Shown piece after piece: positions 3-42,355 of a stretch of DNA of 58,457 nt (positions within the stretch are counted from its first letter, which is position 1; each line of letters begins with the position of its first letter). Below the pieces are notes generated by a model. That model ran no database searches and was not told where the DNA came from. It saw nothing but the letters and a program-made list of their open reading frames with translations. The DNA is from an uncultured Dehalococcoidaceae bacterium (GTDB taxonomy: Bacteria; Chloroflexota; Dehalococcoidia; UBA2979). Made by a program: the position numbers and the translations under genes. Location: positions 1 to 58,457 of the forward strand of contig CAYPYF010000007.1 of the NCBI GenBank assembly GCA_964414675.1, given 5' to 3'.

Positions 3-449
3 GAATCGTACGAGTGGGTGGTGATCGACACCCCGGGCACGATGAATGAGGTGGTCGCCGCGTCCCTGAACGAAGCGGCGATCGTCCTGCTGGTGTCGTC
101 ACTCGACGTCTCGAGCATCAAGGACACCAAGACGGCACTGCGGATCCTCGAGTCATGGGCGGTGGCGCCGGAACGCGTGCGCCTGGTGGTCAACGACATC
201 ACGCGTGCGGCAGCGGTGACGCCGGAGGACGTCGAACGCGCGACCGGCAAGGACATCACCTCGCTGATCGCGCACGACGGCCACGTGGGACTGTCCGTGC
301 AGACGGGCATCCCGATCGTGCAGTCGAATCCACGCAGCCGCTTCGCACGGGAGTTGCTCGGGCTGTCCGAGTCCATCGCCGGCCTGACCGAGGACCGCTC
401 CCGCCGCTTCTCGTTCGCCAGCCTGCCGCTTGTGGGACGGAGCTCGTAA
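3..449 (+). CDS. cpaE: CpaE/TadZ pilus assembly protein, C-terminal part (5'-truncated by window)
   Basis: Frame is open from nt 3 (ESYEWVVIDTPG). Closely matches the C-terminus of the full CpaE at 23050..24255 (VIDTPG.MNE.VAASLNEAA...LDVSSIKDTKTALRILESW). TAATG overlap with cpaF. Confidence 0.9.
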   Translation, partial: ESYEWVVIDTPGTMNEVVAASLNEAAIVLLVSSLDVSSIKDTKTALRILESWAVAPERVRLVVNDITRAAAVTPEDVERATGKDITSLIAHDGHVGLSVQTGIPIVQSNPRSRFARELLGLSESIAGLTEDRSRRFSFASLPLVGRSS

Positions 450-1771
450 TGGTCACAGTCGGATCCGACCTGGTGCGCACCCCGCTGCGGAGCGTAGAGC
501 CCTCGAACGAAGCGCTCATCGAGCGGGTGCACGAGCGACTGGTGGAGGACCTCAACGTCCGCGCGATGGACGCGCTGCCGGACTCGCAGCGCCGGGCGCA
601 GGTGGAGGCGGCGACGGGACGCATCCTGGGTGAGGTGGCGCCGGGCCTCCAGGGCATCGCCCGCCAGGAAGTCCTCACGGACGTGGTGGACGAAGTGCTC
701 GGCTTCGGCCCGATCCAGTCGCTGCTGAACGACCCGGACGTGACCGAGATCATGGTCAACGGCCCGTCCGAGATCTTCTACGAGCGCGAAGGCCTCCTCT
801 ACGCCAGTGGGGTGCGGTTCCGCGGGCCTGACCACGTCCGGCGCATCGCCGAGCGGATCGTAGCCCCCCTCGGCCGGCGCCTCGACGAGAGCTCGCCGAT
901 GGTGGACGCGCGCCTGCCGGACGGCTCCCGCGTGAACATCGTCCTGCCCCCCATCGCCGTGCGGAGCACGACGATCAGCATCCGGAAGTTCCGCACGGAC
1001 CGCTTCGACGTGGACGACCTGGTACGGATCGGGACGATCACGCAGGAGGTCGCCGGGTTCCTTCGCGCCTGTGTCGTCTCCAAGGTGAACATCGTGATCT
1101 CGGGAGGGACGGGCTCCGGCAAGACCACGTTCCTGAACGCGCTGTCGGCCTTCATCCCGAAGCAGGAGCGCGTCGTCACGATCGAGGACCCGATGGAGAT
1201 CCGCCTCCGGCAGCCGCACGTCGTCTCGCTGGAGGCGCGCCCGGCCGGCGGCGAAGGCGGAGCCGATGTGACCCAGCGCGACCTCGTCCGGAACTCGCTC
1301 CGCATGCGCCCTGACCGCATCATCGTCGGCGAGGTCCGTTCGTCCGAAGCGTTCGACATGCTGCAGGCGATGAACACCGGCCACGAGGGTTCGATCACCA
1401 CGGTCCACGCGAACACACCTCGAGACGCGCTGTCCCGGATCGAGAACATGGTGATGATGGCCGGGTTCGACCTGCCCACCTCCGCGATCCGCCAGCAGAT
1501 GGCGTCCGCGCTGCACATGATCGTGCAGGTGAGCCGCATGATGGACGGCTCACGGCGCGTGACGCACATCACGGAAGTCGTCGGGCTGGAGGGGGACCTG
1601 GTCTCGATCCAGGACGTCTTCCGCTTCGCAGACCAGTCGCTGGATGCCGAGGGCCGCGTGACGGGACGCCTTGTCTCGACCGGGGTACGGCCACGCTTCT
1701 CCGAGCGGTTCCCCGCCTTCGGTATCTCTGAGCAGTGGGTCTCGCCCCCGACCGTCGGGCTGGCGATATGA
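449..1771 (+). CDS. cpaF: CpaF/TadA pilus assembly ATPase
   Basis: Walker A GGTGSGKTT, TIED, LRMRPDRIIVGEVR, MNTGHEGSITTVHAN. Start placed at ATG 449 (overlaps cpaE stop) rather than the ORF-track 155. Confidence 0.95.
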   Translation: MVTVGSDLVRTPLRSVEPSNEALIERVHERLVEDLNVRAMDALPDSQRRAQVEAATGRILGEVAPGLQGIARQEVLTDVVDEVLGFGPIQSLLNDPDVTEIMVNGPSEIFYEREGLLYASGVRFRGPDHVRRIAERIVAPLGRRLDESSPMVDARLPDGSRVNIVLPPIAVRSTTISIRKFRTDRFDVDDLVRIGTITQEVAGFLRACVVSKVNIVISGGTGSGKTTFLNALSAFIPKQERVVTIEDPMEIRLRQPHVVSLEARPAGGEGGADVTQRDLVRNSLRMRPDRIIVGEVRSSEAFDMLQAMNTGHEGSITTVHANTPRDALSRIENMVMMAGFDLPTSAIRQQMASALHMIVQVSRMMDGSRRVTHITEVVGLEGDLVSIQDVFRFADQSLDAEGRVTGRLVSTGVRPRFSERFPAFGISEQWVSPPTVGLAI

Positions 1772-2772
1772 GCACCTCGTTGGACCCGGTGCTATTGCAG
1801 TGGCTCATCGCGGGCGGCGCGGGGCTGATGGTGGCATCGATGGTCACCGCGCTCTCACGCGCATCCCAGCCGTCCCGCGCCCGGGTCCGTGGACGCCTCG
1901 AGTCGATCCAGGACGGCGCGACCTACACCGCACCATCCGATGTGGACCTCCTCCGTCCGCGGACGCGGATCCCACTGCTGCACCGCTTCGTGCAGAACGA
2001 GCAGTCCAGCTCCGAAGTCGAACGGATGCTGGAACGCGCCGGCCTGAGCATGCGCGTAAGCGAGTATGTCGGTCTGCGTTCGGTCATCGCGGGCGTCGGT
2101 GTGGTCTTCGGACTGATCCTGGGACTGGCGATGGGCGTGGGGCCGCTCGTAGCGATCGCCCTGATGGGGACAGCGGGGGTGCTCGCCGTACTGACACCCG
2201 GCTTCATCCTCCGGCGGCGCATCGCCGGTCGACGGGCACAGATCGAGCGCGAACTCGTCGAGATGTGCGACCTGATGGCGTCGATGCTGCAGTCCGGCTT
2301 CGGGTATCTGCAGGCGCTGCACTCAGTCTCCGAGCAGGTGGAGGAACCGCTGGCGAGCGAGCTGGTGCGGATGCGCGACCAGATCCGGCTCGGCGCCGGA
2401 GTAGACGAGGCGCTCATCCAGGCGAACGAACGGCTGGGCAGCCCGGACTTCGACATGGTGGCGACGGCGATCCTCATTCAGCGCACGAGCGGCGGCTCCC
2501 TCGCCCCGATCCTCGCCGGTGTGGCGAAGACGATCCGCGACCGGCACCTCTTCCGTGCGGAGATCAAGGCGCTCACCTCGCGCGAGCGGTACTCCGCGGT
2601 GATCCTCGCGAGCTTCCCGCTGCTCCTCACGGCGGCCCTCACGGCAATGCTCCCCGACACGTTCGGACTGCTCTTCACGGATCCCACGGGCCGCATCGTC
2701 CTGGCGATCGCGATGGTGTCGGACGCGCTGGGGTACTGGTTCATCAAGCGCGTCACGAAGCTGGAGGCGTGA
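1768..2772 (+). CDS. tadB: TadB type II secretion F-family membrane protein
   Basis: N-terminal TM helix and T2SSF core (LASELVRM..IRLG, ILIQRTSGGSLAPIL, EIKALTS). ATGA overlap with cpaF stop. Confidence 0.92.
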   Translation: MSTSLDPVLLQWLIAGGAGLMVASMVTALSRASQPSRARVRGRLESIQDGATYTAPSDVDLLRPRTRIPLLHRFVQNEQSSSEVERMLERAGLSMRVSEYVGLRSVIAGVGVVFGLILGLAMGVGPLVAIALMGTAGVLAVLTPGFILRRRIAGRRAQIERELVEMCDLMASMLQSGFGYLQALHSVSEQVEEPLASELVRMRDQIRLGAGVDEALIQANERLGSPDFDMVATAILIQRTSGGSLAPILAGVAKTIRDRHLFRAEIKALTSRERYSAVILASFPLLLTAALTAMLPDTFGLLFTDPTGRIVLAIAMVSDALGYWFIKRVTKLEA

Positions 2773-2773
2773 G

Positions 2774-3676
2774 GTGGAGCCACCGATCCTCGCGGGGATG
2801 GCCGGCCTGACCGTCGCGCTCTTCACCGCCGGCGCGATGCGACGTAGTCCGGCCCCCATGATCCGACGGCGCGTGCAGGACCTCGAAGACGTCGAGGTCT
2901 CCCCGGAGCAGCGATCGTTCATGGAGCGGGTCATCGGCCCGATGCTCGGCGCGATGTGGGCGTGGTCATCCTCGGTGATGCCGGGCACGTCCGAGGCGAA
3001 ACTGGGTCACCGGCTGGAGGCCGCGGGGGTCGCAATCCCCGTCGCGCGGTTCATCGCGGCGTGGGCGGGCTTCGGCGTCCTCCTCCCGTCCATGGTCATC
3101 CTCGTCGCCATCGCCCTGCGAGCGCCCGGGTTGAGCGTGATCGCCACCCTGATGGTGGCGTGGATCGGTGTGGGGATCGCCGCACCGGGTTACCTGCTCG
3201 GCAAGATGACCAGGAAACGGATCGACGTCATCGAGCGGTCTCTCTCGGACGCGATGGACCTCATCGTCACGAACGTGGAGGCGGGCGTCGGACTGCAGGC
3301 GGCGCTGATCAACGTCTCCGAGAAGCTGGACGGGCCGCTGACCGAGGAACTGGCGCGGTCGATCCGGGAGATCAGCCTGGGGCGACCTCGCGACGAGGTC
3401 ATGGAGGCGATGGCGCGACGCACGGGCTCGCGTGAGATGGCGCTGTTCACGCGCGCCATCGCGCAGGCCGAGCGGAACGGCGTCCCCATCGCGCGGGTGC
3501 TTCGCGCACAGTCGGCCGAGCTCCGCGAGCGTCGACGCCAGGCGGCGCGCGAGCGCGCCAACACCTTCCCGCTGCGGATCACGCTGCTGACGGTGATCTT
3601 CATCTTCCCCACGCTCTTCCTGCTCATCCTGGGACCGGTGGCGTTGAATGTCCTCGACTTCTTCGCGAACCGCTGA
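2774..3676 (+). CDS. tadC: TadC type II secretion F-family membrane protein
   Basis: DAMDLIVTNVEAGVGLQAAL, AIAQAERNG.PIARVLR.QS.ELR.RR, C-terminal IFPTLFLLILGP. Confidence 0.92.
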   Translation: MEPPILAGMAGLTVALFTAGAMRRSPAPMIRRRVQDLEDVEVSPEQRSFMERVIGPMLGAMWAWSSSVMPGTSEAKLGHRLEAAGVAIPVARFIAAWAGFGVLLPSMVILVAIALRAPGLSVIATLMVAWIGVGIAAPGYLLGKMTRKRIDVIERSLSDAMDLIVTNVEAGVGLQAALINVSEKLDGPLTEELARSIREISLGRPRDEVMEAMARRTGSREMALFTRAIAQAERNGVPIARVLRAQSAELRERRRQAARERANTFPLRITLLTVIFIFPTLFLLILGPVALNVLDFFANR

Positions 3677-3680
3677 TCCG

Positions 3681-4043
3681 ATGAACGCACCCTGCGCGAG
3701 CCTGCTCGGGCCGCGTGTGTCCGTGCGCGCCGCCGACCGCTGGTGGCTGCGGATGCGCGGCCTGATCGGACGCGCGGCGCCGGGCGCGGGCGAAGGGATG
3801 CTGTTCCCCGGTTGCACTTCCGTGCACACGTGGCTGATGTCGTACCCAATCGACGTCGTGTACCTGGACGATCATGCGACGGTCACACGCGTGCGTTCCT
3901 CCGTACGGCCGTGGCGGTTCAGCCGAGGCGGGCGAGGTGCTCGCCACGTGCTGGAGCTGGCCGAGGGTGAAGCCGGCCGTCTCCACCTCCAGCCGGGTGT
4001 GAACGTAGAACTCGTCCCGCATATGACCGGGGGGACTTCGTGA
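3681..4043 (+). CDS. DUF192 family protein
   Basis: RMRGLIGR...GEGMLFPGCTSVHTWLMSYPIDVVYLD...VLELAEG pattern typical of DUF192. Confidence 0.85.
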   Translation: MNAPCASLLGPRVSVRAADRWWLRMRGLIGRAAPGAGEGMLFPGCTSVHTWLMSYPIDVVYLDDHATVTRVRSSVRPWRFSRGGRGARHVLELAEGEAGRLHLQPGVNVELVPHMTGGTS

Positions 4044-4564
4044 GGGCCTCCTTGCGGTGGGACGCGCCGGTCGGGGGCGCCGCGTCGGTCATCGCGGGCG
4101 CTACCACCGGTGGGCTCGTGGCCCAGTCGTACGCGGGCGCCACCTTCGGCTGCAGCGTCGCGCTCCTCGCGATCGCGGTGGTCGTGGACCTCCGGGAACG
4201 CCGGATCCCCAACACCGTTACCTACCCGGCCGTGATGGCCGCCTTGCTGCTCGCTGCGTTGCAGGGACCAGCCGCACTCGGTTCCTCCCTCGGGGGGCTC
4301 GCGGCCGCCGGTGGGATCCTCGCGGGATTGTCGGTCCTCTCCCGGGGCGGCCTGGGGGCGGGTGACGTGAAGGCCGGCGCCGCCGTCGGTGCGCTGGTGG
4401 GGCCGTCGGCTGCGTTGCAGTTCGTGGTGGCGACCAGCGCAGCCGGCGCTGCCCTCGCCGTGGTCTGGCTGGTTGCAGGACATCGTCGTCAGGACACACT
4501 GCCCTACGCCCCGGCGCTTGCCGCGGGCGCGTTGATCGTCGCGCTCACCGCTCAGGTCGCGTGA
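4040..4564 (+). CDS. Prepilin peptidase (A24A, short TadV/CpaA type)
   Basis: Both catalytic Asp motifs present (VDLRERRIPN, GAGDVK), multiple TM helices, LPYAPAL tail. Confidence 0.88.
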   Translation: MRASLRWDAPVGGAASVIAGATTGGLVAQSYAGATFGCSVALLAIAVVVDLRERRIPNTVTYPAVMAALLLAALQGPAALGSSLGGLAAAGGILAGLSVLSRGGLGAGDVKAGAAVGALVGPSAALQFVVATSAAGAALAVVWLVAGHRRQDTLPYAPALAAGALIVALTAQVA

Positions 4565-4582
4565 GCTGAGGAGGACTCCGTC

Positions 4583-5890
4583 ATGCTGAAGAGACGCATG
4601 CACACGTTCGCCCGCGTCGGGTCACGGGTCCATCGCGACGAGCGAGGGCAGGCGCTGCCCCTCCTGGTCGCCGCCATGATGGTCTTCGTGGTGATGGGCG
4701 TGATCGTCATCGACTTCGGCCAGATGTTCGCGGACCGGCGCGAAGCACAGCGCGCCGTGGACCTCGCAGCACTGGCCGGAGCGCAAGACCTCCCATGGGA
4801 GGCGGACGACCCCAACGCACTGGCCAAGCTCCTCGCGGCACGCGCAAGCGCAGAGGGGTTCCTGGACACGAACGGCTACCCCGCCGTCGCGTCAGACGTC
4901 GAGGTGATCGTCACGACCGAGTATGGCAGCGACCCTCGCGCGATCGAGGTGGAGGCGCGACGGCCCAGCATCTGGCGCTTCGGGACGCTGTTTGGCGTCG
5001 GGCAGCCCTCGGTCGGTGCGCGCGCCGTGGCGCAGCTGCGGACCCTGCCGACCGAGTACGGGATCATGGCGCTGAGCCACGCGGCCTGCCAGGCGTTCCA
5101 GGTGGAAGGAAACGTCACCCTAGAGGTCATCGACGCAGGCATCCTGGTGAACTCGAGCTGTCCCAACTACGCCATCGACATCGTCGGCAACGTCATCGTC
5201 GAGAGCGCACAGTTCGACCGCTACTACGAGGGCTCGACGTGGATCACCTCGAACACGACCGTGGACCCGATGCCGCAGTCGCTCGGGTGGCGTGTCGACG
5301 ACCCGCTCTCATACCTGCTCGAGCCCGACCCGTTGACGCTCCCGACGTCACCCGATTCCGGGGGGACGTCCGCGAGCCCCGCGCTCAGGAGCCTCGGCGG
5401 TGGAGGGAGCCAGACCCTGCGGCCGGGCGTCTACTGGGGCGGCCTGTCGATCGCGGGCAACAAGGATGTGGTCTTCGAGTCCGGGCTGTACGTGATGGCC
5501 GGCGGCGGATTCACGATCCGCGGAAACGGCGACATCACCGGCGACGGGGTCACGATCTTCAATACGACCCGTGGAGGCTCCTGCGGCGCGATCGACCTCG
5601 CTGGCGGTCGGCCCCTCGGGTTCTCGCCGCAGTTGTCGGGGCCATACGAGAGCCTGACGTTCTGGCAGTCCGTGGGCTGCACCAGGACCATGGTTCACGG
5701 CGGCACCGTGGACTCCCTCAGCGGACTCATCTATCTCCCCACCGCGGCGTACGAGCTGGCGGGCGACGGCACGATGTCGGGCGTCCAGGTCATCGCCTCG
5801 ACGGTCCGGGTGAGCGGCAACGGCATCGTCACGATCGACTACGAGAACGGCGCCGTCGCCGAGGTCTGGACCGTGATGCTGGTGGAATGA
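4583..5890 (+). CDS. TadG-like pseudopilin/tip protein with large Gly-rich beta domain
   Basis: ERGQALPL + hydrophobic helix, IDFG, AQRAVDLAALAGA Tad N-terminal motif, GGAG RBS. Confidence 0.85.
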   Translation: MLKRRMHTFARVGSRVHRDERGQALPLLVAAMMVFVVMGVIVIDFGQMFADRREAQRAVDLAALAGAQDLPWEADDPNALAKLLAARASAEGFLDTNGYPAVASDVEVIVTTEYGSDPRAIEVEARRPSIWRFGTLFGVGQPSVGARAVAQLRTLPTEYGIMALSHAACQAFQVEGNVTLEVIDAGILVNSSCPNYAIDIVGNVIVESAQFDRYYEGSTWITSNTTVDPMPQSLGWRVDDPLSYLLEPDPLTLPTSPDSGGTSASPALRSLGGGGSQTLRPGVYWGGLSIAGNKDVVFESGLYVMAGGGFTIRGNGDITGDGVTIFNTTRGGSCGAIDLAGGRPLGFSPQLSGPYESLTFWQSVGCTRTMVHGGTVDSLSGLIYLPTAAYELAGDGTMSGVQVIASTVRVSGNGIVTIDYENGAVAEVWTVMLVE

Positions 5891-9373: not shown

Positions 9374-10141
9374 CTAGCGCCCGAACGCGAGTGCGAGTTC
9401 GGGAGTCCGCGAGAACTCGGCCGCTTCCGTCCGGCGGAACGTCTCGACTGGGAGCCGCGCCAGGCGGTACCCGACGCCCCACTCGCTGACCAGGTACTGC
9501 GGGCTCTTGGGGTTGTCCTCGAGCTTCTGCCGCAGGTAGCCGGCGTAGACTCGGAGGTACTGCACGTCGTTCAGGTATTCCTCGCCCCACACCGTGGTGA
9601 GGAGGAAGCGGTGCGGTACGGTCTGGCCGACCTGGCTGGCGAGGGCGTCCAGGAAGCGATATTCGGTGTTCGAGAGGGACACCGGGACGCCGTGCTTCTT
9701 CACCGACCGCGCGTCGCGGTCGATGGTCAACGCCCCGGTCTCAACGACTCGCAGCGCCGCGGGGCGGGTGGCGACCCGCTGGTACCGACGTACCGCAGCG
9801 TGCACACGTGCGAGGAGCTCAACCGCCGCGCAGGACTTCGTGATGACGTCGTCCGCGCCGGCGTCCAGGGCCCGCACGATGTCCGCCGAGTCGTCGGCAT
9901 CGTCGACCAGTCCCACGATCGGGACATCGCAAGCCGCGCGAAGGATCCGGATCAGCTCAAGCCCCCCGACACCGCCAGCATCGAGGTCCACGAGCGCCAG
10001 GTCCGGGCGTTCCTCGTATGTCGTGCGAAGCGCCGAAACGCTGTCTGTCGCCTCGGCCACATCGAATCCATCGGTCTGGAGGATGCGCGCCACCCGTGCC
10101 CGGATGTCGTCCCGCATCTCGATTACTGCAACCAGTGCCAT
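9374..10141 (-). CDS. OmpR/KdpE-like winged-helix response regulator, atypical receiver
   Basis: Receiver plus wHTH (YLRVYAGYLRQKLE...EWGVGYRL). The switch Thr is replaced (IVGLV) and KP is KS. Confidence 0.88.
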   Translation of the reverse strand: MALVAVIEMRDDIRARVARILQTDGFDVAEATDSVSALRTTYEERPDLALVDLDAGGVGGLELIRILRAACDVPIVGLVDDADDSADIVRALDAGADDVITKSCAAVELLARVHAAVRRYQRVATRPAALRVVETGALTIDRDARSVKKHGVPVSLSNTEYRFLDALASQVGQTVPHRFLLTTVWGEEYLNDVQYLRVYAGYLRQKLEDNPKSPQYLVSEWGVGYRLARLPVETFRRTEAAEFSRTPELALAFGR

Positions 10142-10692
10142 GCCCGCCTCCTGGTTTGTCTACGTTCCGATCAATCGATCAGAACTCAATCAGAAGATGG
10201 AAGGAACCTCCGGTTTTGTTTCGCATCACTATCTCTGGGTGGCTACCCGAATGAAATCGTCAGAAAACGTCGTCGAGTGCACCTCGCCGACCATCCATCG
10301 CCGTCCCTGAGGCGACGCGCCACTGATCGGGACAGCGCGAGGCCGTCGATCGGTCAGATCCGTTGCAGCCTAACGAATCTTTGCGTTTTCTCTTGAGCGG
10401 GCGCATATTCGCCAAGCGCAGGGCCCTCATCATGAGTGGGTGAAGATCAACCGTGATCGCCAGCCTGAGGGCCATCCTCATCGAGACGCTCGAGTCGCGC
10501 AGCGACCGGGCCTGACCGGCGCCGCCGCCCTGCTGGACTCCGTCGCACGGGCCGAACTCCGAGGCCGGCAAGAGCGCGTCCGGCAGCACCTGAAGCTGGC
10601 GATGCGTCCACGAGCCCAGGCCTGAGTCCACGTACCTCCGGAGGAGGGCGTGGGGTCTGATCCGGCGACGGACAGCGGGCCGCCCTCAAGCC

Positions 10693-12522
10693 CTACTTCC
10701 CGCGGGAATTGCCCTTCCCACCGCCTTCGTTGCCGTGCCCGACACCGTTATTGCCCGCCCCCGCGACGTTGTTGACCTGAGTTCCGCCATTGCTCGCCGC
10801 GGAGGCGGCGGCACCGTTGCCATTCCCGTTTCCGTTGTTGCCGTTGCCGTTGTTGCCGTTGCCGTTGTTGCCGTTGTTCCCGTTCCCGGGGAGTACGGCG
10901 CTTCCCGTGGCCGTGCTGGCCAGGCTGTTCTGGGACATGACCGGGATCGAGCCAGCGGCCGCTTTGGCGGCACCAGTTTCCGTGGCTCGACCGCGCGCGA
11001 TGCCAGCGCCCTGTGCCTTCACGGCGGCATCCGTGGACCCGTTTCCGGGCGCGTGTGACGGCGAGACATCGGCTCGCCCCTGCTTGAGCTGGCCAGGTGC
11101 CGAGTTCCTGCCGTTGCCGGACGTGCCCCCCGTGCCCGAGGCGTTGCTCGCGGGAGCTGCGCCCGAACCCGAGGCATTCTGAGCATGGACCGCAGGGCCT
11201 GTCGCGGCAGGCACCTCAGACATACCGGCGAGCGGCTGGGCTCCCGGGCTGTCCGACTCGGAGGGGGTTTCCACGGCGTCCTGTGACTCCGGGAGCTCCG
11301 AGGCGAGGCCCGCGGTCGTGACAAGTTCGTCTGCAACCGAAGGCGAGGGAATGTCGGCGAGGCGCTGGTCAGCGGCGAGCGCTGCTGGGGGAGTCGCGGT
11401 CGGTCGTGCGTCGAGTACGGCCTCGTGCGTGGATGGCCCGATCACATCGGCCGAGGCGTACGTCGCTGCCAGCGGTTCGGTCACGTGAGGGGCACGGTCG
11501 ACCGGGAGCATGGCGCCACCCGCGATCGTCGTCGTCGCGATCAGGGTGACGACGACGGCCGAGATGCCTGCGCTGGACGCCGACGTCGCAGCCATGGTGG
11601 CCACAGCGGCGCCACCTGCGGTTGTCGCCCCGGCGACGGTCGTCGCGCCTGCGGCGCCTCCGCCTGCACTGCCCCCGAGGCCGACGAGGCCCAACACTCG
11701 CTGCGCGGCTTCCGCGAGGAATCCAAGGAGTCCGCCGCCGGTGAGGCCGGGCATCGCGAGGCCACCCCAGTTGCGGTAGACGGCCTGGCCAGCCTGCATC
11801 GTCACGAACCGCTCGTTGCATTCGCCGCAGCCCTTGATGTGGGCGCGCACGTCTCGCGCGGTGCTCTCGTCGAGCTCTGCGTCGATCAGCTCGCTGATCC
11901 GGAGCGGGTTGGTCCCGCACCGCGACTGCCTGTCCTCGACGAGGTCAAAGATCCGGCGGAACCGGTCGCGGGCACGACACACCCGTACTTCGGCCGCGTT
12001 CCGGGAGATACCCAGCCTGGTCGCGATCTCGTCGTAGTCGAGACGAAGACGCTCGCGCATGTCCAGCACATCGCGGTCGGTCTGGGACAGCGAGCCGAGT
12101 GCTTCGCAGATCTTCCGTCGGTTGTCGCGGGAGAGCGTGTAGGCCTCGGGCGTCGGTTCGCTCAGGTCCTCGAACTCCTCGACTTCATCGTCCTCGTAGG
12201 TGTGGAAGGTCCGGACGTGGGCGCCTTGCTTCGAACGGCCCGCGACGAAGGTGAGGGCGGAGTTCCGGGCGATGCTCTTCAGCCAGGGCCGGAAGCGGTG
12301 GACATCGCGCAGCGAGTCCAACCGGGAGAACGCCCGGATCCACGTCTCCTGCTCGACGTCGCTCGCGTCGTCCGAGTCCGTCACGAAGCGGCGGACCAGG
12401 CGGCGCACCGTTTCGCCGTACTCGCCCATGAGCTCGCTGAACGCTTCGTCGTCGCCGGCACGAGCGCGGGCGACGAGGACGGGCTCCATTTCCGACGGTG
12501 AGAAGCGGTACGCGACAACCAT
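10693..12522 (-). CDS. ECF sigma factor fused to zinc-binding anti-sigma (HxxxCxxC) domain, hydrophobic/TM segment and Gly/Asn-rich tail
   Basis: Region 2 (DVEQETWIRAF...FRPWLKSIARN) and region 4 (LDYDEIATRLGISRNAAEVRVCRAR), then HIKGCGEC, hydrophobic stretch and GNGNN repeats. Start at ATG 12522 (GGAG RBS) or 12576. Confidence 0.88.
   Translation of the reverse strand: MVVAYRFSPSEMEPVLVARARAGDDEAFSELMGEYGETVRRLVRRFVTDSDDASDVEQETWIRAFSRLDSLRDVHRFRPWLKSIARNSALTFVAGRSKQGAHVRTFHTYEDDEVEEFEDLSEPTPEAYTLSRDNRRKICEALGSLSQTDRDVLDMRERLRLDYDEIATRLGISRNAAEVRVCRARDRFRRIFDLVEDRQSRCGTNPLRISELIDAELDESTARDVRAHIKGCGECNERFVTMQAGQAVYRNWGGLAMPGLTGGGLLGFLAEAAQRVLGLVGLGGSAGGGAAGATTVAGATTAGGAAVATMAATSASSAGISAVVVTLIATTTIAGGAMLPVDRAPHVTEPLAATYASADVIGPSTHEAVLDARPTATPPAALAADQRLADIPSPSVADELVTTAGLASELPESQDAVETPSESDSPGAQPLAGMSEVPAATGPAVHAQNASGSGAAPASNASGTGGTSGNGRNSAPGQLKQGRADVSPSHAPGNGSTDAAVKAQGAGIARGRATETGAAKAAAGSIPVMSQNSLASTATGSAVLPGNGNNGNNGNGNNGNGNNGNGNGNGAAASAASNGGTQVNNVAGAGNNGVGHGNEGGGKGNSRGK
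10813..10887. repeat. Gly/Asn codon microsatellite (GCCGTT/GTT units) in the ECF tail
   Basis: Tandem GTTGCCGTTGCCGTT-type units encoding GNGNNGNNGNGNNGNGNNGNG. Confidence 0.85.
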
Positions 12523-12850
12523 GCTGTGCTCCGGGTCCCCATTCGGGGACTGGCCGCCCGGATCGCTGCGCTCCATCCGGAGTCGCTACCCAGCCACACT
12601 ACTGAGGGACACCCCTCTCCTCGCTTAGCGCTAACCCTGATCTTTGTGCTCCGCTTCCTTAGGGGAGCAATGAGAAGTCTTTCGAGAAGTACGACGCCCG
12701 AAATTCCGGCCTCGATGTGGGCCACCAAATGAGGCGGCGTCAGTCGGGTAAACAGAAGAATCAGGGTGAACCCCTACGACGGCGCTGTAAGCAATGGCCT
12801 CGGCGGCCGTCTAAGCACCTACACGCGTAACACGTGAACAGGAGCACACC

Positions 12851-13057
12851 ATGACGCCAGCCCTCTCCATGCAACTCGCCACCGAACTTCGCGACACGAT
12901 CCTCCAGGACCTCGTCGCCGTCAGCATGATGGTGAAGTTCGCCCAGGCGAAGCCCGAGACGAGCGACAAGCAGGTCCTGCAGAAGGCCGAGTCGATCCTG
13001 CGGACGGACCTGGACCAGCTCCGGCTGGTGATCTCGCGCCTCGGGCCGCCAGCCTAG
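12851..13057 (+). CDS. Stand-alone HisKA_3-like dimerisation (DHp) microprotein lacking the phospho-His
   Basis: AGGAG RBS. LATELRDTILQDL...LRLVISRLGP aligns with the HisKA_3 pattern IARELHD..Q.L...R.li..LrP, with H replaced by R. Confidence 0.65.
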   Translation: MTPALSMQLATELRDTILQDLVAVSMMVKFAQAKPETSDKQVLQKAESILRTDLDQLRLVISRLGPPA

Positions 13058-13120
13058 TCGTCGCGATGCTGTCCACCGACGCACCGTCCGAGGTGCACCA
13101 GGACCGTACGGGATCTGACC

Positions 13121-13894
13121 ATGACCGCCCTTCCACTCGTCCTCATCGCAGAGCCTGACCAGGCCGCCCGGATCGGGTTGTCTCGCGCCCTCGAGCAGCA
13201 GGGGTACCGGGTCGTCGAGGCCGGCGATGGCCCGTACGCCGTGCGCCAGGCGTTCAGCACGTCACCTGATGCGGTCATCCTCAACCTGTCGCTGCCACTC
13301 CTCAGCGGACTGGAGTTGGTGAAGTTGCTCCGCGCGGCGTCCGACATGGCGATCATCACGGTGACCGACAGCCCCTCCAGCCAGCTCGCGATCCGCGTGC
13401 TGGACTCCGGCGCGGACGACTACCTCCCGGCGAACATCCCACCGAGGGAGATCGTCGCCCGGATCCAGTCCGCGCTGCGGCGGGTCACCAGACAGGCGTC
13501 CATCGCGATCGCCGCAACCCCTGCGTACTCGGACAGTGCGGTGGTGCGGACCGGTGACCTGGAGATCGACCTGGACCACTACTCCGTGCGGAAGAATGGC
13601 GCCGAGCTGCAGATGACCCGTCTGGAGCATCTGCTGCTGCGAGCCCTCGCGCGGCGGATGGGCCAGGTGGCGCCGCACCGCTACCTGATGACCGAGGTCT
13701 GGGGCTCCGAGTACCTGGACGACACGCATTACTTGCGCGGTTATGTCGCTTCGCTCCGAAACAAGCTCGAGGCAGACCCCTCGCGCCCGCGGTTGCTCCT
13801 GACCGAGTGGGGCGTCGGCTACCGCCTGGAAGCGCTCCCCGTGGAGACGGAGGTCGCGCCGACCCGCGAGCTCGTCGAGGCTGCCAGCGCCTAG
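13121..13894 (+). CDS. OmpR/KdpE-like response regulator with pseudo-receiver (phospho-Asp replaced by Asn)
   Basis: PDAVILNLSLP (N at the Asp site), Lys absent (YLPAN). Intact wHTH HYLRGYVASLRNKLE...EWGVGYRL. Confidence 0.88.
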   Translation: MTALPLVLIAEPDQAARIGLSRALEQQGYRVVEAGDGPYAVRQAFSTSPDAVILNLSLPLLSGLELVKLLRAASDMAIITVTDSPSSQLAIRVLDSGADDYLPANIPPREIVARIQSALRRVTRQASIAIAATPAYSDSAVVRTGDLEIDLDHYSVRKNGAELQMTRLEHLLLRALARRMGQVAPHRYLMTEVWGSEYLDDTHYLRGYVASLRNKLEADPSRPRLLLTEWGVGYRLEALPVETEVAPTRELVEAASA

Positions 13895-16611: not shown

Positions 16612-16833
16612 CTAGTAGTAGGGGCTCGCGTAGACCTGTCGGAGCGAACTGAGGGACCTCCACCCGATCATCGCGAAGAAGCCTGCGACGGGGATCATGA
16701 AGGCGCCGGCGGGGTCAAACTGCAGGGTGAGCCACACCGCCCAGAGGACGGTCATCGCGGACGCGAGCAGGAACTTCCACGCCACATAGGCGTAGAAGCC
16801 GACGTAGACGATCCGCTGCATCTTCGAGTACAC
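16612..16833 (-). CDS. 73-aa membrane protein of unknown family (paralog 1)
   Basis: Hydrophobic, AWK.L...DPAGA.MIP.AGF...PYY. Gapless paralog at 18598..18819. Confidence 0.8.
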   Translation of the reverse strand: MYSKMQRIVYVGFYAYVAWKFLLASAMTVLWAVWLTLQFDPAGAFMIPVAGFFAMIGWRSLSSLRQVYASPYY

Positions 16834-16851
16834 GGGGCGTCTCCAGATCGG

Positions 16852-17391
16852 CTAGTTGGCGGTCGCGTCCGCGGGAGCGCCCTCGACGGGGACGAGGATC
16901 ACCTGCCCCACGAAGAGCGCGTTCGGGTCGGCCAGGTCGTTCAACTCGATGAGCGCAGGGACCGTGGTGTCATACCGCAGGGCGATCTGCTCGAGTGTGT
17001 CGCCCGCCTCGACGGTGTGTGTCGCGGGGGCAGGTGTCATGGAGAGGACTGGCCGCCCGGTCTCGACTGGAGCGATCGATGCGGGGACAAGGATGGGGGC
17101 AGTGACATCCGCGACGGCCGCAACTGGCTCCGCGCTCCCTCGAAGGGCGGTGACACCGGCCACCGCCACGGCGACGGAGAGCACGAACACCGCGAGGATC
17201 AGCGTGAGGCTGCGACCCTGCCGAGGAGGAGGGGAGATGTCCTCGGCGGGGTCACTGCCTGTAGTGGAAGTCGCCGCCTGGGCGAGGGCGACTTCTCGGT
17301 CACGTTCCGCGAGGGCGCGGAGGTATTCGGTCGGGTCCCGGTGCGCGGGGACGACAACCGACTCTGTGGCGCTGGGCGACGTCGTGGTCAC
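16852..17391 (-). CDS. Single-TM protein with C-terminal LysM domain
   Basis: TM LTLILAVFVLSVAVAVAG. HTVEAGDTLEQIALRYDTTVPALIELNDLADPNALFVGQVILVP. Confidence 0.88.
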   Translation of the reverse strand: MTTTSPSATESVVVPAHRDPTEYLRALAERDREVALAQAATSTTGSDPAEDISPPPRQGRSLTLILAVFVLSVAVAVAGVTALRGSAEPVAAVADVTAPILVPASIAPVETGRPVLSMTPAPATHTVEAGDTLEQIALRYDTTVPALIELNDLADPNALFVGQVILVPVEGAPADATAN

Positions 17392-23049: not shown

Positions 23050-24255
23050 CTATGCGCCCTTTCCGACGAGGCGGCTGAGCGAGACCAGTGCGGCGCGTTC
23101 ACGAGTGGGGCGGACGCCGGCCAGCGATTCTGCCGCCTCCCGGAGGATCCGGCTGTACTTGCTCTTGGGATGCGACAGCGCGAGGGGCATGCCCGACTGG
23201 ACGGACAGGCCGACGGCGGAGTCGAAGGGGATGACGTGCGCCAGCTCCAGGCCGGTCGCCCGCTCGACGTGCTCGGGGCGGATCGCCGCGGCGCGGTTGC
23301 AGTCATTGACCACGAGGCGGACCCGCTCGCTGGGCATCCCCCAGGACTCGAGGATCCGCAGCGCGGTCTTCGTGTCCTTGATGCTGGACACGTCGAGCGA
23401 CGTCACCAGCATCACGACCGCGGCCTCGTTCAGGGAGGCGGCGACGAGCTCGTTCATGACGCCCGGGGTGTCGATGACGACGTACTCGTGCGTCTCAGCC
23501 AGGCTCCTGACGATCTCCGACATCTGCTCGGGCTGGACTGCCCGCCAGTCGTCCGGCTCGGAGGCCGCCATCAGGACGTTCAGGCCGCGCTCGTGACGGA
23601 CCAGGTACCGGCCCACGGTGTTGCGGTCGATCTCGCGCTCGTTCCGCGCGAGGTCCGCGATGGAGTGCTTCACGTCGAGGTCGAGCATGACGCCGACGTC
23701 GCCGAACTGGGCGTCACCGTCGACGAGCGCGATCTCCTGGCCCGTGACCTCGCGCAGCGAGACCGCGAGGTTCGTCGCGAGGGTCGTCTTGCCGATGCCA
23801 CCCTTCGCGCCGGCGACCGTGATCACGGTGCCGCGGGCTCGGACGTCGGGCGCGTCGGACCAGCGCGAGAGCTGCTTCTGCTCCTCCTGCGCCAGCACGG
23901 AGTGCACGGAGTCGCGTAGTTCCTGCGCAGACACCGGCTTCTCGAGGAAGTCTCGCGCGCCGGAACGCATCGCCTGCCGCATCAGCCCGGAGGCCAGCGC
24001 GGAGGAGTACGCGATGATCGGCGTGTCGGGGAGTTGCTGCTGCAGGCTCTCCAGCGTCGCGAGGGCGCGCACCGGAGGGTCCTCCAGTGCAATAACGATG
24101 ACGTTCGGACGCTGCTGAGTCGCCAGGAAGACGGCCTCCGTGCCGTACCCGGACTCACCGGCGCAGTCGATCCCGATGGTCTCCAGCGTCCGCGACATGT
24201 CGAGGCGGGAGTCGAGGTTCGGGTCGACGATCAAGGAGGTGAGGTTGCGTGCCAC
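23050..24255 (-). CDS. cpaE: CpaE/TadZ (receiver-like domain + MinD-like ATPase)
   Basis: N-terminal receiver-like fold, deviant Walker A GAKGGIGKTT, VIDTPG. Confidence 0.93.
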   Translation of the reverse strand: MARNLTSLIVDPNLDSRLDMSRTLETIGIDCAGESGYGTEAVFLATQQRPNVIVIALEDPPVRALATLESLQQQLPDTPIIAYSSALASGLMRQAMRSGARDFLEKPVSAQELRDSVHSVLAQEEQKQLSRWSDAPDVRARGTVITVAGAKGGIGKTTLATNLAVSLREVTGQEIALVDGDAQFGDVGVMLDLDVKHSIADLARNEREIDRNTVGRYLVRHERGLNVLMAASEPDDWRAVQPEQMSEIVRSLAETHEYVVIDTPGVMNELVAASLNEAAVVMLVTSLDVSSIKDTKTALRILESWGMPSERVRLVVNDCNRAAAIRPEHVERATGLELAHVIPFDSAVGLSVQSGMPLALSHPKSKYSRILREAAESLAGVRPTRERAALVSLSRLVGKGA

Positions 24256-24278
24256 GAGCGGGCCTCTTTCCGGGTGGG

Positions 24279-25145
24279 CTAGCGGCTGGCAGCGAGGCCG
24301 GTGGCGACGCCGTCAGCGGACTCGAGCTTGAAGAGCGGGTTGAGCGCCGTGCTGTTCGTGTCACCGAACGAGCGCAGTGCCAGCCCCAGCGTGCCGCGCT
24401 GGGCAGCCATGAAGAGCGCCTGGGCCTGTTCCGGGTCCACGGCCAGCGTCACGGAGCGCGCCTCTGGCTGGGCCTCGGCGGTCTCCACGCGCAGCGTCGC
24501 CGGGTCGCGCGCGCCGTCGAGCGGCGGCGTCGTCTGCTGCGCGACCGCGAGCACCAGGACGTCCTGGAGGACCGTGATCACCGTGGGGTGGCTGGACGGG
24601 TCGTCCTCGGTGTTGGTGGGGGTCTGGAGCTCGAACGGACCGAAGAGGTTGCCGTACTCCGTGGAGACCAGGACGTCGACGCGGTCGCCCGGGACGATGA
24701 GTCCGCCGGCGCCGCTGACCTCGGTCACCGGGACCGAGAGGCCGCGCATGCCGGCCGGGACCGTGAACGCGAGTCCGGTGCCAGTGGCGGAGTCCTCCCC
24801 GACAACGCGGGATGGGAGAATCTGCTCGCCCTGGACGAGGGGGTAGCGGGCGACGCGTCCGACCACGTCGTCAAGGTCGCGGACGGCGCCCGGCAGCACC
24901 GCGGAGGGGTGCACATCGCGCAGCTCCAGCATGGCGCTGGTGATCTCCGTGCCGGCCGCGATGCCTTCCCGCACGAGCACGACGGACTCCGTCCGCGCGT
25001 CGCTCATCATCGCCGAGGCCTCGGCGGTCGCGTCCGACTCCTGCGAGTCGATCCAGACGAAGGCCGCCGCTGCCGAGGCTGTCCCCAGGACAACCGCCAG
25101 GAGCATCAGCGCGCTCCCCGACGCCAGATTCCGCAAACGTTCCAT
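24279..25145 (-). CDS. cpaB: CpaB/RcpC pilus assembly protein (SAF domain)
   Basis: GMRGLSVPV..VSGAGGLIVPGDRVDVL, TVLQDVLVLAV, VTLAV.P.QA..L..A...G.L.LALR. Confidence 0.92.
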   Translation of the reverse strand: MERLRNLASGSALMLLAVVLGTASAAAAFVWIDSQESDATAEASAMMSDARTESVVLVREGIAAGTEITSAMLELRDVHPSAVLPGAVRDLDDVVGRVARYPLVQGEQILPSRVVGEDSATGTGLAFTVPAGMRGLSVPVTEVSGAGGLIVPGDRVDVLVSTEYGNLFGPFELQTPTNTEDDPSSHPTVITVLQDVLVLAVAQQTTPPLDGARDPATLRVETAEAQPEARSVTLAVDPEQAQALFMAAQRGTLGLALRSFGDTNSTALNPLFKLESADGVATGLAASR

Positions 25146-39197: not shown

Positions 39198-39587
39198 CTA
39201 GACGCCTGCGGTGTAGCGGAGAGGCAGGGCGCGACGGTGCGTGGCCCGTTCAACGAACGCGGCGACGAGGTCCGCGGGGGCGGGCCAGGCGATGACGTAC
39301 TCGAACCCGTACTCCTCGATCAGTCGCGCACGTTCCGCTGTGCTCAGCGGGACGTGCGAGAGGAGCACCTTCGGCGCTGACACGCGTTCGAGGTCTTCGC
39401 GGAAGAAATCGAGGAGAGCGGCGTCATAGAAGAGGACGACGACATCAGCCCAGGCGATCGACGCACGATCGTGCACGACGTGATCGAGGCGGTCAGACCA
39501 GGCGCTGAGTCGACGCTCGCGGAGGGCGCGGACAACTGCCGATGCGGAGCCCTCGGGGCCAGCTACCAGGACGTTGTAGTCGCGCAT
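39198..39587 (-). CDS. Highly degenerate stand-alone receiver-like protein
   Basis: GAGGAG RBS. Beta/alpha pattern VLVAG...ADVVVLF...PKVLLS...YGFEYVIAWP. No Asp or Lys at the canonical sites. Confidence 0.55.
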   Translation of the reverse strand: MRDYNVLVAGPEGSASAVVRALRERRLSAWSDRLDHVVHDRASIAWADVVVLFYDAALLDFFREDLERVSAPKVLLSHVPLSTAERARLIEEYGFEYVIAWPAPADLVAAFVERATHRRALPLRYTAGV

Positions 39588-39778
39588 CACATCTCCTCTG
39601 AGGAGAGTGCGCTTCGTCGCCGGGGCACGGGATCGGGGAACACCCCTATCTTGCGCTGCTTCGCGCGAGAGACCGTTTTCTTATGGTGTTGCGAGACGCC
39701 GAAACCTCCGATGATTCCAGTGGCTGTTAAAATCGGCCCCCAACTGAGGTAGACCCTCTTCGTTCGAGGTATGGATCA

Positions 39779-40498
39779 ATGCTCCCCAGCACCGAAGATC
39801 CGGCGACGACATCCGTCCCTGTCCGTGTGGGTGTGAGCTCTCCGGACGACGACCTGGTGCGTATTCTTGCAGAGGAGTTCGAGGCGGAGGAGGTGTCCCT
39901 GCGGACCGCCCTCGCGGCGCCGGAACAGCTCCACCTGGATGTCCTGCTGATCGACGCTCGACATCGGAGCCAGCTCGTCCCCACGGCACGGCTCGTCACG
40001 GAGGGCACGTTCTCCGTAGTGGTGATGGCGCGCCCTCAGGACTCGGTCGAGGCGATGAAGTACCTGGACGTGGGCGCGCTGGACGTGATCTGGAGCGGCG
40101 CCGCAGCATCCGAGATCGGCGCCCGTATCCGTTCCGCAGCCCGTTACGCCGAATCGATCGAGGTCGAGTGGTTGACCGTCGGAGACCTCGCGATCTCCAC
40201 GAAGCGACACGAGATCAGGCGCGCCGGACAGAGCATCCGGCTGACGCCCACGGAATTTCGCCTGGTGGAAGCGCTGGTGGAGGCGGCCGGTGAGACGGTC
40301 ACCCACCGGAGCATCACCTACCAGGTGTGGGGGACCACGGACGACGCCACGCGGCACCAGTTGCGCGTGTACGTCCGCCAGCTCCGCGAGAAGATCGAAC
40401 CCGACCCGGCGCACCCGACCGTGATCGTGACCGAGCCGGGAGTGGGCTACCGCCTCGACGGGTTGGGTCGTCCCGGGAGCCGCCGCGTCGCGAGTTAG
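39779..40498 (+). CDS. OmpR/KdpE-like response regulator, degenerate receiver
   Basis: wHTH LRVYVRQLREKIEPDPAHP.VIVTEPGVGYRL. The receiver lacks the acidic pocket, Thr and Lys. Confidence 0.88.
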   Translation: MLPSTEDPATTSVPVRVGVSSPDDDLVRILAEEFEAEEVSLRTALAAPEQLHLDVLLIDARHRSQLVPTARLVTEGTFSVVVMARPQDSVEAMKYLDVGALDVIWSGAAASEIGARIRSAARYAESIEVEWLTVGDLAISTKRHEIRRAGQSIRLTPTEFRLVEALVEAAGETVTHRSITYQVWGTTDDATRHQLRVYVRQLREKIEPDPAHPTVIVTEPGVGYRLDGLGRPGSRRVAS

Positions 40499-40542: not shown

Positions 40543-41289
40543 CTACTCGGCATTGACCGCGAGCGGTTCGCGGCTCCCACCCGAGTCGACGATGGGCAGG
40601 CGCGCCAGTCGGTAGCCGACGCCCCAGTCGTTCAGGATGTACTGCGGCTGCGCCGGCTGATCCTCGAACTTGGCACGCAGGTATCCGACATAGACACGCA
40701 GGTAGTGCGTGTCGTTGACGTACTGATCTCCCCAGACCGTGCTGAGCAGGTAGCGGTGGGGGGCGGTCTCCCCGAGTCGGGATCCGAGCGCCTCGAGCAG
40801 GCGGTACTCAGTCCGCGGGAGCTGGACGGGACGCCCTCGGTGGCGAACGACCTGGGCGTCGCGGTCGATTTCTATCGCGCCGGTGCGGATCAGCTGTCGC
40901 GCGCCCCCGAAGGCCGTGTCTGCGCGACGTTCGTAGCGTCGCACGGCGGCGCGGAGGCGGGCACGAAGCTCGGCGGACCCGGTCGCCTTCGGGACGACAT
41001 CGTCTGCGCCGGCATCAAGTGCGCGGACGACCGCGTCGGAGTCGTGGTTCGCGAGGAGCGCCACGATCGGGACATCGCATGCAGCGCGCAGGATCCGGAT
41101 GAGTTCGGCGCCGCCGACGTCGCCCGAGCCCAGGTCGATCACCGCGGCGTCCGGGCGGGCATCGAATGCGATCCGCAGACCCTCAAGCCCATCCTCGGCA
41201 GACAGGACTTCGAAGCCGTCTGCCCGAAGGAAGCGCTCCAGTCGTAGTCGTGACTGCTCGTCGCCGTCTACCAGTGCGATCGTCGCCAT
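40543..41289 (-). CDS. OmpR/KdpE-like response regulator, atypical receiver
   Basis: Paralog of 9374..10141 (shared LIRILRAACDVPIV). wHTH HYLRVYVGYLRAKFE...DWGVGYRL. Switch Thr absent. Confidence 0.9.
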   Translation of the reverse strand: MATIALVDGDEQSRLRLERFLRADGFEVLSAEDGLEGLRIAFDARPDAAVIDLGSGDVGGAELIRILRAACDVPIVALLANHDSDAVVRALDAGADDVVPKATGSAELRARLRAAVRRYERRADTAFGGARQLIRTGAIEIDRDAQVVRHRGRPVQLPRTEYRLLEALGSRLGETAPHRYLLSTVWGDQYVNDTHYLRVYVGYLRAKFEDQPAQPQYILNDWGVGYRLARLPIVDSGGSREPLAVNAE

Positions 41290-41404
41290 GAGTCCCTCGA
41301 GCCGTGAACATTGCCGCTACCCAGTGAATCGGCCCGAGCGATGCATTTGTTACGGAGGATCCGGACGGCACGAAAGGACGGGATGCGCCGGGCGCGGACT
41401 GACC

Positions 41405-42175: not shown

Positions 42176-42355
42176 GAATTCCAGCTGTCAGGTGGCGCCC
42201 ACGGGCATGGCTGCTTCCGTACATCCCTCTTATCGACGCTCTAACTGACCGTGTTACGAGGCCGTTGCCGACTCATACAAACCCTGACCCTCTTCATATG
42301 GGAAGTCAGCGCGTTCCTATGCGGCCGACACAGTCCGGGTGGTGTCCTAGCCACG

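Follow-up and report, generated by a model that had tools for sequence, protein, structure and literature searches.

Background

The locus studied here raises the question of what a histidine kinase hairpin may do once it is encoded on its own and devoid of its histidine. It lies in a window of 58,457 nucleotides (the whole stretch of DNA that was analysed, from an uncultured Dehalococcoidaceae bacterium) and encodes a microprotein in which an arginine occupies the place of the phospho-accepting residue. Pseudo-kinases and pseudo-receivers are common in bacterial genomes. Pseudo-histidine kinases still signal, by binding a regulator or a kinase or by phosphatase activity (PMC4211667, PMC12469816, PMC9491836, PMC12632262). 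HisKA_3 kinases and CheZ have the phosphatase motif DxxxQ in common (PMC3510030). When DesK and DesR form their phosphatase complex, the attacking water is placed by Gln193 of DesK, Leu200 inserts into the regulator and Arg235 bonds DesR Asp103, with His188 buried more than 18 Å from the reaction centre (PMC5231405). According to a 2025 survey, the histidine takes no part in HisKA_3 phosphatase activity, just 0.3% of HisKA_3 domains lack it and proteins of this kind have no known general function (PMC12632262).

The family to which the microprotein belongs represents a clean natural experiment, in which the hairpin stands alone, the replacement of the histidine is always the same and the phosphatase and docking residues are kept. 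With a protein of 68 residues, it becomes testable what a lone DHp does, whether the histidine is dispensable for the phosphatase activity of HisKA_3 proteins and whether arginine can act in catalysis or binding in a new way. Through the family, the control of pili, flagella and adhesins also becomes accessible in uncultured Dehalococcoidia, and synthetic circuits could gain from it a minimal, portable module to damp two-component pathways.

A genuine gene for a histidine-less HisKA_3 hairpin

The open reading frame (Table 1) is a genuine gene. Its 68 codons, translated as MTPALSMQLATELRDTILQDLVAVSMMVKFAQAKPETSDKQVLQKAESILRTDLDQLRLVISRLGPPA, have a GC content of 0.68, 0.38 and 0.93 at the first, second and third position, a strongly coding-like pattern in a host genome of 68% GC, and they are preceded by a ribosome-binding site of their own, as the initial annotation had remarked. 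Only 63 nt separate the stop codon (13055-13057) from the next gene, which leaves no space for a sensor or a HATPase domain, and no terminator was found between the two genes.

The Pfam profile HisKA_3 (PF07730) matches residues 8-67 of the microprotein over profile positions 4-66 of 68, with 31.6 bits (E=2.5e-7; gathering cut-off 24), and scores 30.7 bits in a search of its own genome. It is the sole Pfam match at E<=10, with no homology to CheZ, CheX, CheC or Spo0E, and NCBIfam gave weak local matches only, to the DHp part of the MadS, MctS and LiaS kinases. The alignment of the family profile with the DHp of DesK (PDB) is free of gaps and places R14 on His188, D15 on Asp189, Q19 on Gln193, M26 on Leu200 and R58 on Arg235. 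The His-box reads ELRD where kinases have ELHD, the phospho-accepting histidine being absent with Arg14 in its place. The DxxxQ motif is retained as D15 and Q19, with the same spacing as D143 and Q147 of CheZ (CheZ positions per PMC3510030), and so is the arginine of helix 2 (R58).

The AF2 single-chain model is an antiparallel two-helix hairpin (helices 3-33 and 40-64, mean pLDDT 76.7). Compared with the PDB using Foldseek, it gave no match with E<=0.001, such hairpins resembling many coiled coils; a RetS/GacS DHp structure is among the weak fold matches.

The microprotein resembles the HisKA_3 DHp of DesK and NarX/NarQ by its full-length profile match, its gapless alignment with DesK, its hairpin, its E-L-x-D-x-x-x-Q pattern and its helix-2 arginine. 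It differs from them in that its family always carries arginine for histidine and has neither HATPase_c domain nor sensor nor membrane anchor. The initial annotation had read it as a stand-alone, histidine-less HisKA_3 hairpin deprived of sensor and ATPase domains, and this description stands on the profile score, the alignment of R14 with His188, the lack of any other Pfam match and the proximity of the next gene. Judged on its sequence, it qualifies as a pseudo-histidine kinase in the sense of PMC12632262, derived from HisKA_3 and lacking both the histidine and the ATPase domain.

Table 1. Coordinates of the features discussed; positions refer to the window unless a contig or another locus is named
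Feature	Position	Strand	Evidence or remarks
Tad genes	155-5890
OmpR-type regulator gene	9374-10159	-	paralogous to the four other regulators listed
ECF sigma (regions 2 and 4), zf-HC2 anti-sigma, membrane segment, low-complexity tail	10693-12576	-	Pfam
Box1-like site	12646-12625	-	before the sigma fusion gene
Box1, palindrome-like, 22 bp, GAAGAATCAGGGTGAACCCCTA	12755-12776	+	recurrent upstream of family genes
Box2, TGTAAG	12786-12791	+	GTAAG common to a subset of loci
Box3, CGTCTAAG	12808-12815	+	CGT(T/C)CTA pattern
Shine-Dalgarno AGGAG	12840-12844	+	6 nt 5' of ATG; read from sequence
68-aa R-DHp microprotein gene	12851-13057	+	ORF, Pfam HisKA_3, DesK alignment, AF2 model, dN/dS
OmpR-type regulator gene, 257 aa, pseudo-receiver	13121-13894	+	Pfam Response_reg and Trans_reg_C; alignment
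Region with LysM protein gene	16612-17391	-
Box1 site	17961	+	before small-ORF region
Box1 site	18874	+	before 82-aa membrane protein gene
Box1 site	37965	+	before CAP-domain gene
Lone receiver gene	39198-39590	-
Box1 sites	39627; 39654	+; -	flanked by the genes of the lone receiver and of the 39779 regulator
Sigma-28-like -10 box	~39700-39725	+	before the regulator gene at 39779
OmpR-type regulator gene	39779-40498	+	atypical
OmpR-type regulator gene	40543-41316	-
OmpR-type regulator gene	41405-42187	-
Box1 site, eighth match	contig C2:87024		before R-DHp paralog
Sigma-28-like -10 boxes, CCGATGATTCC	contig C71:11183 and 12773		after Box1, before two flagellin genes
Sigma/anti-sigma fusion, contig of P0002			255 aa as called; divergent, upstream of R-DHp gene
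Sigma/anti-sigma fusion, L019 (G011)			667 aa; tandem, 1.3 kb downstream of R-DHp gene
Sigma/anti-sigma fusion, L040/41			296 aa; convergent with R-DHp gene
Sigma/anti-sigma fusion, L044			713 aa; convergent with R-DHp gene
Sigma/anti-sigma fusion, L049			630 aa; convergent with R-DHp gene
PAS-PAS-HisKA_3-HATPase kinase gene, G007 contig C53	L051: 628-2178	-	directly downstream of sigma/anti-sigma ortholog
84-aa protein gene (examples)	L033: 4070-4321; L027: 4072-4326; L015: 4162-4419		upstream of R-DHp gene
Region with LysM protein gene	L010: 2567-3387	-
LysM protein gene	L042: 3950-4465
Region with R-DHp and EF-G-like genes	L046: 6001-8282; L037: 6001-7138		adjoins R-DHp gene

A lineage-restricted family with an invariant arginine

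A search of 5.8 billion proteins returned two orthologs of exactly 68 aa, 84% and 69% identical to the microprotein and both reading ELRD, and the pairwise dN/dS values among the three sequences (0.20, 0.51 and 0.35) indicate purifying selection. Short open frames of 10 of the 11 other genomes of the same genus contain one to three homologs each, and the host genome itself holds a second copy, on contig C2. When 400 genomes evenly sampled from the phylum were searched, small family members were found nowhere outside the host genome, so the family appears lineage-restricted, rare in reference genomes and mostly retrieved from metagenomes. Its members stand alone, measure 65-90 aa and are annotated in their sources as “signal transduction histidine kinase”, “histidine kinase” or “hypothetical protein”, the named sources being MAGs of Dehalococcoidia.

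A profile search run exhaustively over 1.84 billion representative proteins gave the family statistics, which were drawn from its best 150 matches. Among these best 150, the His site of the 73 proteins of at most 140 aa is occupied by Arg in 66, His in 6 and Cys in 1, and that of the 77 longer ones (kinases) by His in 71, Arg in 3, Asn in 2 and Lys in 1; two of the three long Arg-bearing matches look like over-called ORFs and the third is a membrane protein, P0070. The 66 Arg-bearing clusters have Asp (60) or Glu (6) at position +1 from the His site, Gln (60) or Pro (5) at +5, Asp at +6 in 63, Ala at +9 in all 66, Asp at +42 in 54 and Arg at +47 in 63. The conserved Asp+6, Ala+9 and Asp+42 are specific to the family and come in addition to the kinase pattern, and the Arg-rich stretch that kinases carry ahead of the histidine is missing. 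The arginine codons at the His site differ synonymously (CGC 20, CGG 5, CGT 2) with the residue constant, which indicates that selection acts on the arginine itself. Moreover, helix 1 is near-invariant from -2 to +9 across paralogs otherwise 30-45% identical, which argues for one conserved partner rather than many. In 14 loci, all from named MAGs (Dehalococcoidia/Chloroflexota), a start codon with GGAG(G) ahead lies 9-13 codons, mostly exactly 10, before the Glu of ELRD.

The recurrence of same-size ELRD homologs in the genus and in the 66 clusters places the microprotein far beyond chance. It belongs to an undescribed, lineage-restricted family of small proteins of uncultured Dehalococcoidia, made of a HisKA_3 hairpin with arginine in place of histidine (hereafter R-DHp). 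That the gene would be a chance ORF or the non-functional remnant of a degraded kinase gene is extremely improbable. The protein is short and of no annotated function, one source giving it the automatic label “histidine kinase” only. Conversely, such a remnant is refuted by its orthologs of identical length with dN/dS below 1, by the 66 clusters of the same architecture with conserved start sites, by its GC content at third codon positions, by a conserved upstream element and by an interval to the next gene too short to hold what would be left of a HATPase domain. The initial annotation had also described the protein as a decoy of kinases; a passive decoy leaves unexplained the arginine present in all 66 clusters with synonymous codons, the kept DxxxQ motif and the kept regulator-contact arginine. 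With the profile match and the purifying selection, and nothing marking the gene as a recent kinase remnant, the hairpin itself holds, and the invariant arginine together with Asp+6, Ala+9 and Asp+42 point, at the level of sequence, to a gained function and not just a lost one.

The membrane protein P0070 (469 aa, from a metagenome) combines an N-terminal R-DHp hairpin (AEELRDGLLPD...) with a membrane segment and, outside the cytoplasm, a large repeat domain, and has no ATPase domain. Its hairpin may represent the sole cytoplasmic output of a sensor.

A fused sigma/anti-sigma factor as recurrent neighbour

The most recurrent neighbour of R-DHp genes encodes an ECF sigma factor fused to a zf-HC2 anti-sigma domain, found in at least 6 loci of at least 5 divergent subfamilies. 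In the window, this fusion of 627 aa is divergent from the microprotein gene at a distance of 274 bp. It is the only one in the host genome, and among 41 relatives its orthologs are confined to the genus of the microprotein. Its homologs begin with MV(L/V)A, from which the true start of the window copy is probably Met19 (12522) and not 12576. The sigma gene of L040/41 and that of L044 precede flp, tadE, rcpC, a receiver-ParA gene and cpaF, and the window contains a DUF11 adhesin gene in addition to Tad genes. Sigma factors of the ECF48/52/53 type, from actinobacterial groups, likewise carry a fused zinc anti-sigma domain and a membrane extension, and their activation is presumed to occur by proteolysis (PMC8999054). 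The fusion of the window resembles them by its succession of sigma2 and sigma4, zf-HC2, a membrane segment and a long tail, but is distinguished by its Chloroflexota host and by its pairing with an R-DHp microprotein and Flp/Tad genes; no accessory small protein described for the ECF48/52/53 groups was found in the literature.

In five further genomes of the genus, no R-DHp gene was found adjoining the sigma fusion: the contigs of G002 and G003 are too short to judge, and the fusion has no adjacent R-DHp gene in G001, G006, where 17 kb separate the two, and G007. On a contig of G007, a full PAS-PAS-HisKA_3-HATPase kinase is encoded directly downstream of the sigma/anti-sigma ortholog (Table 1), and this neighbourhood, shared by the kinase and R-DHp genes, possibly reflects an evolutionary or functional link.

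The hairpin could act as a partner of the fusion by binding the sigma or zinc anti-sigma region of its cytoplasmic part, which covers residues 1-260, for instance as an anti-anti-sigma or a stabiliser, and would then control the release of the sigma factor driving the Flp/Tad and adhesin genes. The variety of arrangements in which homologous fusions adjoin R-DHp genes (divergent, convergent and tandem), the position of the sole fusion of the host genome, its restriction to the genus and the Box1-like sites found before both genes are consistent with such a role. We nevertheless hold it improbable, as many members have no sigma gene nearby (e.g. a genus-wide group associated with an ABC transporter, P0031, P0033 and P0030), the fusions of G001, G006 and G007 lack an adjacent R-DHp gene, and the retained regulator-contact and phosphatase residues are left unexplained. 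We also know of no precedent for an interaction between a DHp and a sigma factor.

Response regulators and kinases

An Asp-to-Asn regulator directly downstream of the microprotein gene had been reported in the initial annotation. This regulator is present, with Asn at the phospho-acceptor position (VILNLS) and loss of the conserved Lys (LPANIP), and may be co-transcribed with the microprotein gene in the host genome, but the pairing is genome-specific. DNA homology to the locus of the 84% ortholog stops exactly at the stop codon of the microprotein gene, no counterpart of the regulator was found downstream of the orthologs, and different genes flank the 69% ortholog and the genus paralogs. At the locus of the 69% ortholog (L010), the sole regulator gene is divergent and upstream, and by inspection of the alignment is most like the window gene at 9374-10159; the genus paralogs have no regulator adjoining the R-DHp gene. 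No response-regulator gene is conserved beside R-DHp: such a neighbour exists in the window and L010 only, and the two regulators are mutually non-orthologous. The window encodes five paralogous regulators of the OmpR type (Table 1) with differing receiver defects, in the acidic pair, the Thr/Ser, the Lys or the Asp, and only the one at 13121 has lost the phospho-Asp.

Although many receiver domains are encoded in the window, among them lone receivers at 8832 and 39198 and a receiver-ParA protein at 23050-24312, it contains no kinase gene. The protein encoded at 42251-43225 (plus strand) had been suggested as a partner of the hairpin under the name of an orphan PAS/pseudo-HATPase; it has no Pfam match at E<=1. 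A split kinase formed by the two proteins was rejected on the same absence of any Pfam domain and on the lack of similarity between the 42251-43225 protein and the PAS-HisKA_3 kinase of G007.

Another way in which a lone hairpin could act is by heterodimerising with the DHp of a full-length HisKA_3 kinase, giving poisoned dimers with one histidine and one ATPase domain only, or none productive, and damping the output of the kinase. The DHp is the dimerisation module of HisKA_3 kinases. The host genome encodes one orphan HisKA_3 kinase (contig C82), and in G007 a full HisKA_3 kinase gene lies downstream of the sigma ortholog, a neighbourhood where several other genomes have R-DHp. Deprived of its CA domain, a variant of the HisKA_3 kinase ChrS forms heterodimers with the paralog HrrS, by which signalling is rewired (PMC9491836). 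This explanation appears unlikely all the same: the core of the bundle would suffice for it, so that the invariant arginine, the DxxxQ motif, the regulator-contact arginine, Asp+6 and Ala+9 are left unexplained, the host genome has two R-DHp paralogs for a single HisKA_3 kinase, and the DHp of kinases is only distantly similar, the G007 kinase scoring 14 bits against the family profile.

An upstream element common to motility and adhesion genes

Among 25 family loci, the protein products of which share just 30-45% identity, nearly all have a palindrome-like element (Box1, family consensus AAGATCAGGG-N4-CCCTGA) 85-150 nt 5' of the ATG. Box1 also precedes the R-DHp genes of distant Dehalococcoidia. 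Box3 follows Box1 by 47-49 nt, as counted by hand in three loci (the window, L024 and L037), and the other listed sequences have the same layout; Box2 and Box3, whose distance from Box1 is fixed, may form a core promoter. A scan for sigma-70 consensus promoters found none. The GGG-N4-CCC core of Box1 occurs in both orientations at the same position, which suggests that Box1 is likely the site of a dimeric regulator. This same property led us to reject Box1 as an ECF-type -35 element. A described riboswitch or leader was rejected as well, positions 12500-13200 matching no known RNA family of Rfam.

A weight matrix of Box1 built from 23 sites was scanned over the 3.0-Mb genome. Seven of the ten best matches fall inside the 58-kb window (Table 1), the eighth precedes the R-DHp paralog of contig C2, and weaker matches lie ahead of two flagellin genes (contig C71), of dnaJ (C20) and of a greA-like gene (C93). 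From the distribution of the predicted sites, Box1 marks a candidate regulon concentrated in this Tad-pilus/adhesin island, and the sites common to the microprotein gene and to the motility and adhesion genes suggest that they are co-regulated. Ahead of each of the two flagellin genes, Box1 is followed by a sigma-28-like -10 box, as it is ahead of the atypical regulator gene at 39779.

A candidate receiver-binding phosphatase or sequestering protein

We tentatively favour the reading of the microprotein as a kinase-independent protein that binds a receiver, acting as a phosphatase or by sequestration, in a circuit of motility and adhesion. With neither ATPase domain nor histidine, autophosphorylation and phosphoryl transfer would both be impossible, but the surface with which HisKA_3 kinases dock on a receiver and dephosphorylate it is kept in Asp+1, Gln+5, the hydrophobic residues at +8 and +12 and the arginine of helix 2 (DesK Arg235). 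The microprotein would form a small dimer in a four-helix bundle, bind one conserved partner with a receiver domain, and either speed the hydrolysis of the aspartyl-phosphate of this partner or merely sequester it. Acting on its own, it would then be an auxiliary regulator in the manner of CheZ or Spo0E, albeit derived from a kinase, and probably a feedback or modulator component of the motility/adhesion regulatory circuit. We infer here from conserved residues and gene context that the microprotein dimerises, that it binds a receiver, that it dephosphorylates or sequesters, and which kind of partner it has.

This reading is drawn from the selective retention of the docking and phosphatase residues, the features proper to kinases (the histidine, the Arg-rich stretch that leads up to it and the ATPase domain) being lost. 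The abundance of receivers without kinases in the window and the receiver-ParA proteins encoded in the Flp/Tad loci adjoining other members are also in its favour. Several observations argue against it. No response-regulator gene is consistently linked to the family, and phosphatase activity on the Asn regulator next door would be pointless, as this regulator is not phosphorylatable. HisKA_3 kinases are normally paired with regulators of the NarL type, not of the OmpR type found here. Five of the 66 clusters carry Pro for the catalytic Gln, the strongest genomic link is with the sigma/anti-sigma fusion and not with a receiver, and Foldseek cannot distinguish the hairpin of the microprotein from any other.

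Known systems offer partial parallels to a receiver-directed hairpin. CheZ (DxxxQ), CheX/CheC (ExxN) and Spo0E are likewise small or made of a helical hairpin and present an acidic residue and an amide on an exposed helix facing the active site of the receiver, but the microprotein is not homologous to them in sequence, originates from a kinase DHp, and its phosphatase activity is only predicted. DivL (Tyr for His), BumS of Campylobacter jejuni, RocA and the CA-frameshift variant of ChrS also derive from kinases and have lost kinase function; unlike the microprotein, which is a DHp hairpin alone with a universal arginine, they are multi-domain proteins that keep a sensor and a (pseudo-)ATPase domain. 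Sda, KipI and the RetS-GacS DHp heteromer share with it the control of two-component signalling through small proteins or DHp-mediated protein-protein contacts. Sda and KipI are small protein inhibitors of kinases and not DHp homologs, RetS is a large hybrid kinase, and none of the three has the DxxxQ/Arg pattern.

A bolder form of the receiver-binding reading, which seems rather doubtful to us, is that R-DHp would constitute a new class of dedicated response-regulator phosphatase or clamp, which arose by reduction of a HisKA_3 kinase to its hairpin. Its arginine would enter the active site of the receiver, either as an “arginine finger” together with the Gln of DxxxQ or by clamping the acidic pocket through a salt bridge. 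The regulator acting on the palindromic element would in this case switch on the genes of the microprotein, the fused ECF sigma/anti-sigma factor, flagellin and the Tad pilus and adhesins, and close a feedback loop. Together these would control the switch from a motile to an attached state in a lineage of uncultured Dehalococcoidia with almost no conventional HisKA_3 kinases.

Other recurrent neighbours of R-DHp genes

One subgroup of R-DHp genes shows a conserved synteny of alpha-2-macroglobulin, an 84-aa protein, R-DHp, an ABC transporter and a CHASE4-HisKA kinase. The conserved 84-aa protein, without Pfam domain (MPRFQRLDPNQVVLGRGR...), is encoded upstream of the R-DHp gene in 8 loci, at a distance of ~0.6-0.9 kb in 6 of them and of ~2.7-3 kb in L026 and L028, and the alpha-2-macroglobulin gene is also upstream in 5 of these 8. 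A LysM protein of ~175 aa is encoded near R-DHp genes of three subfamilies, those of the window, L010 and L042; in the window and L010 its gene is preceded by that of a 73-80 aa protein, the window copy of which is hydrophobic and membrane-like. An EF-G-like gene adjoins R-DHp in two divergent subfamilies, and in one of them (L046) it starts just 27 nt past the R-DHp stop codon.
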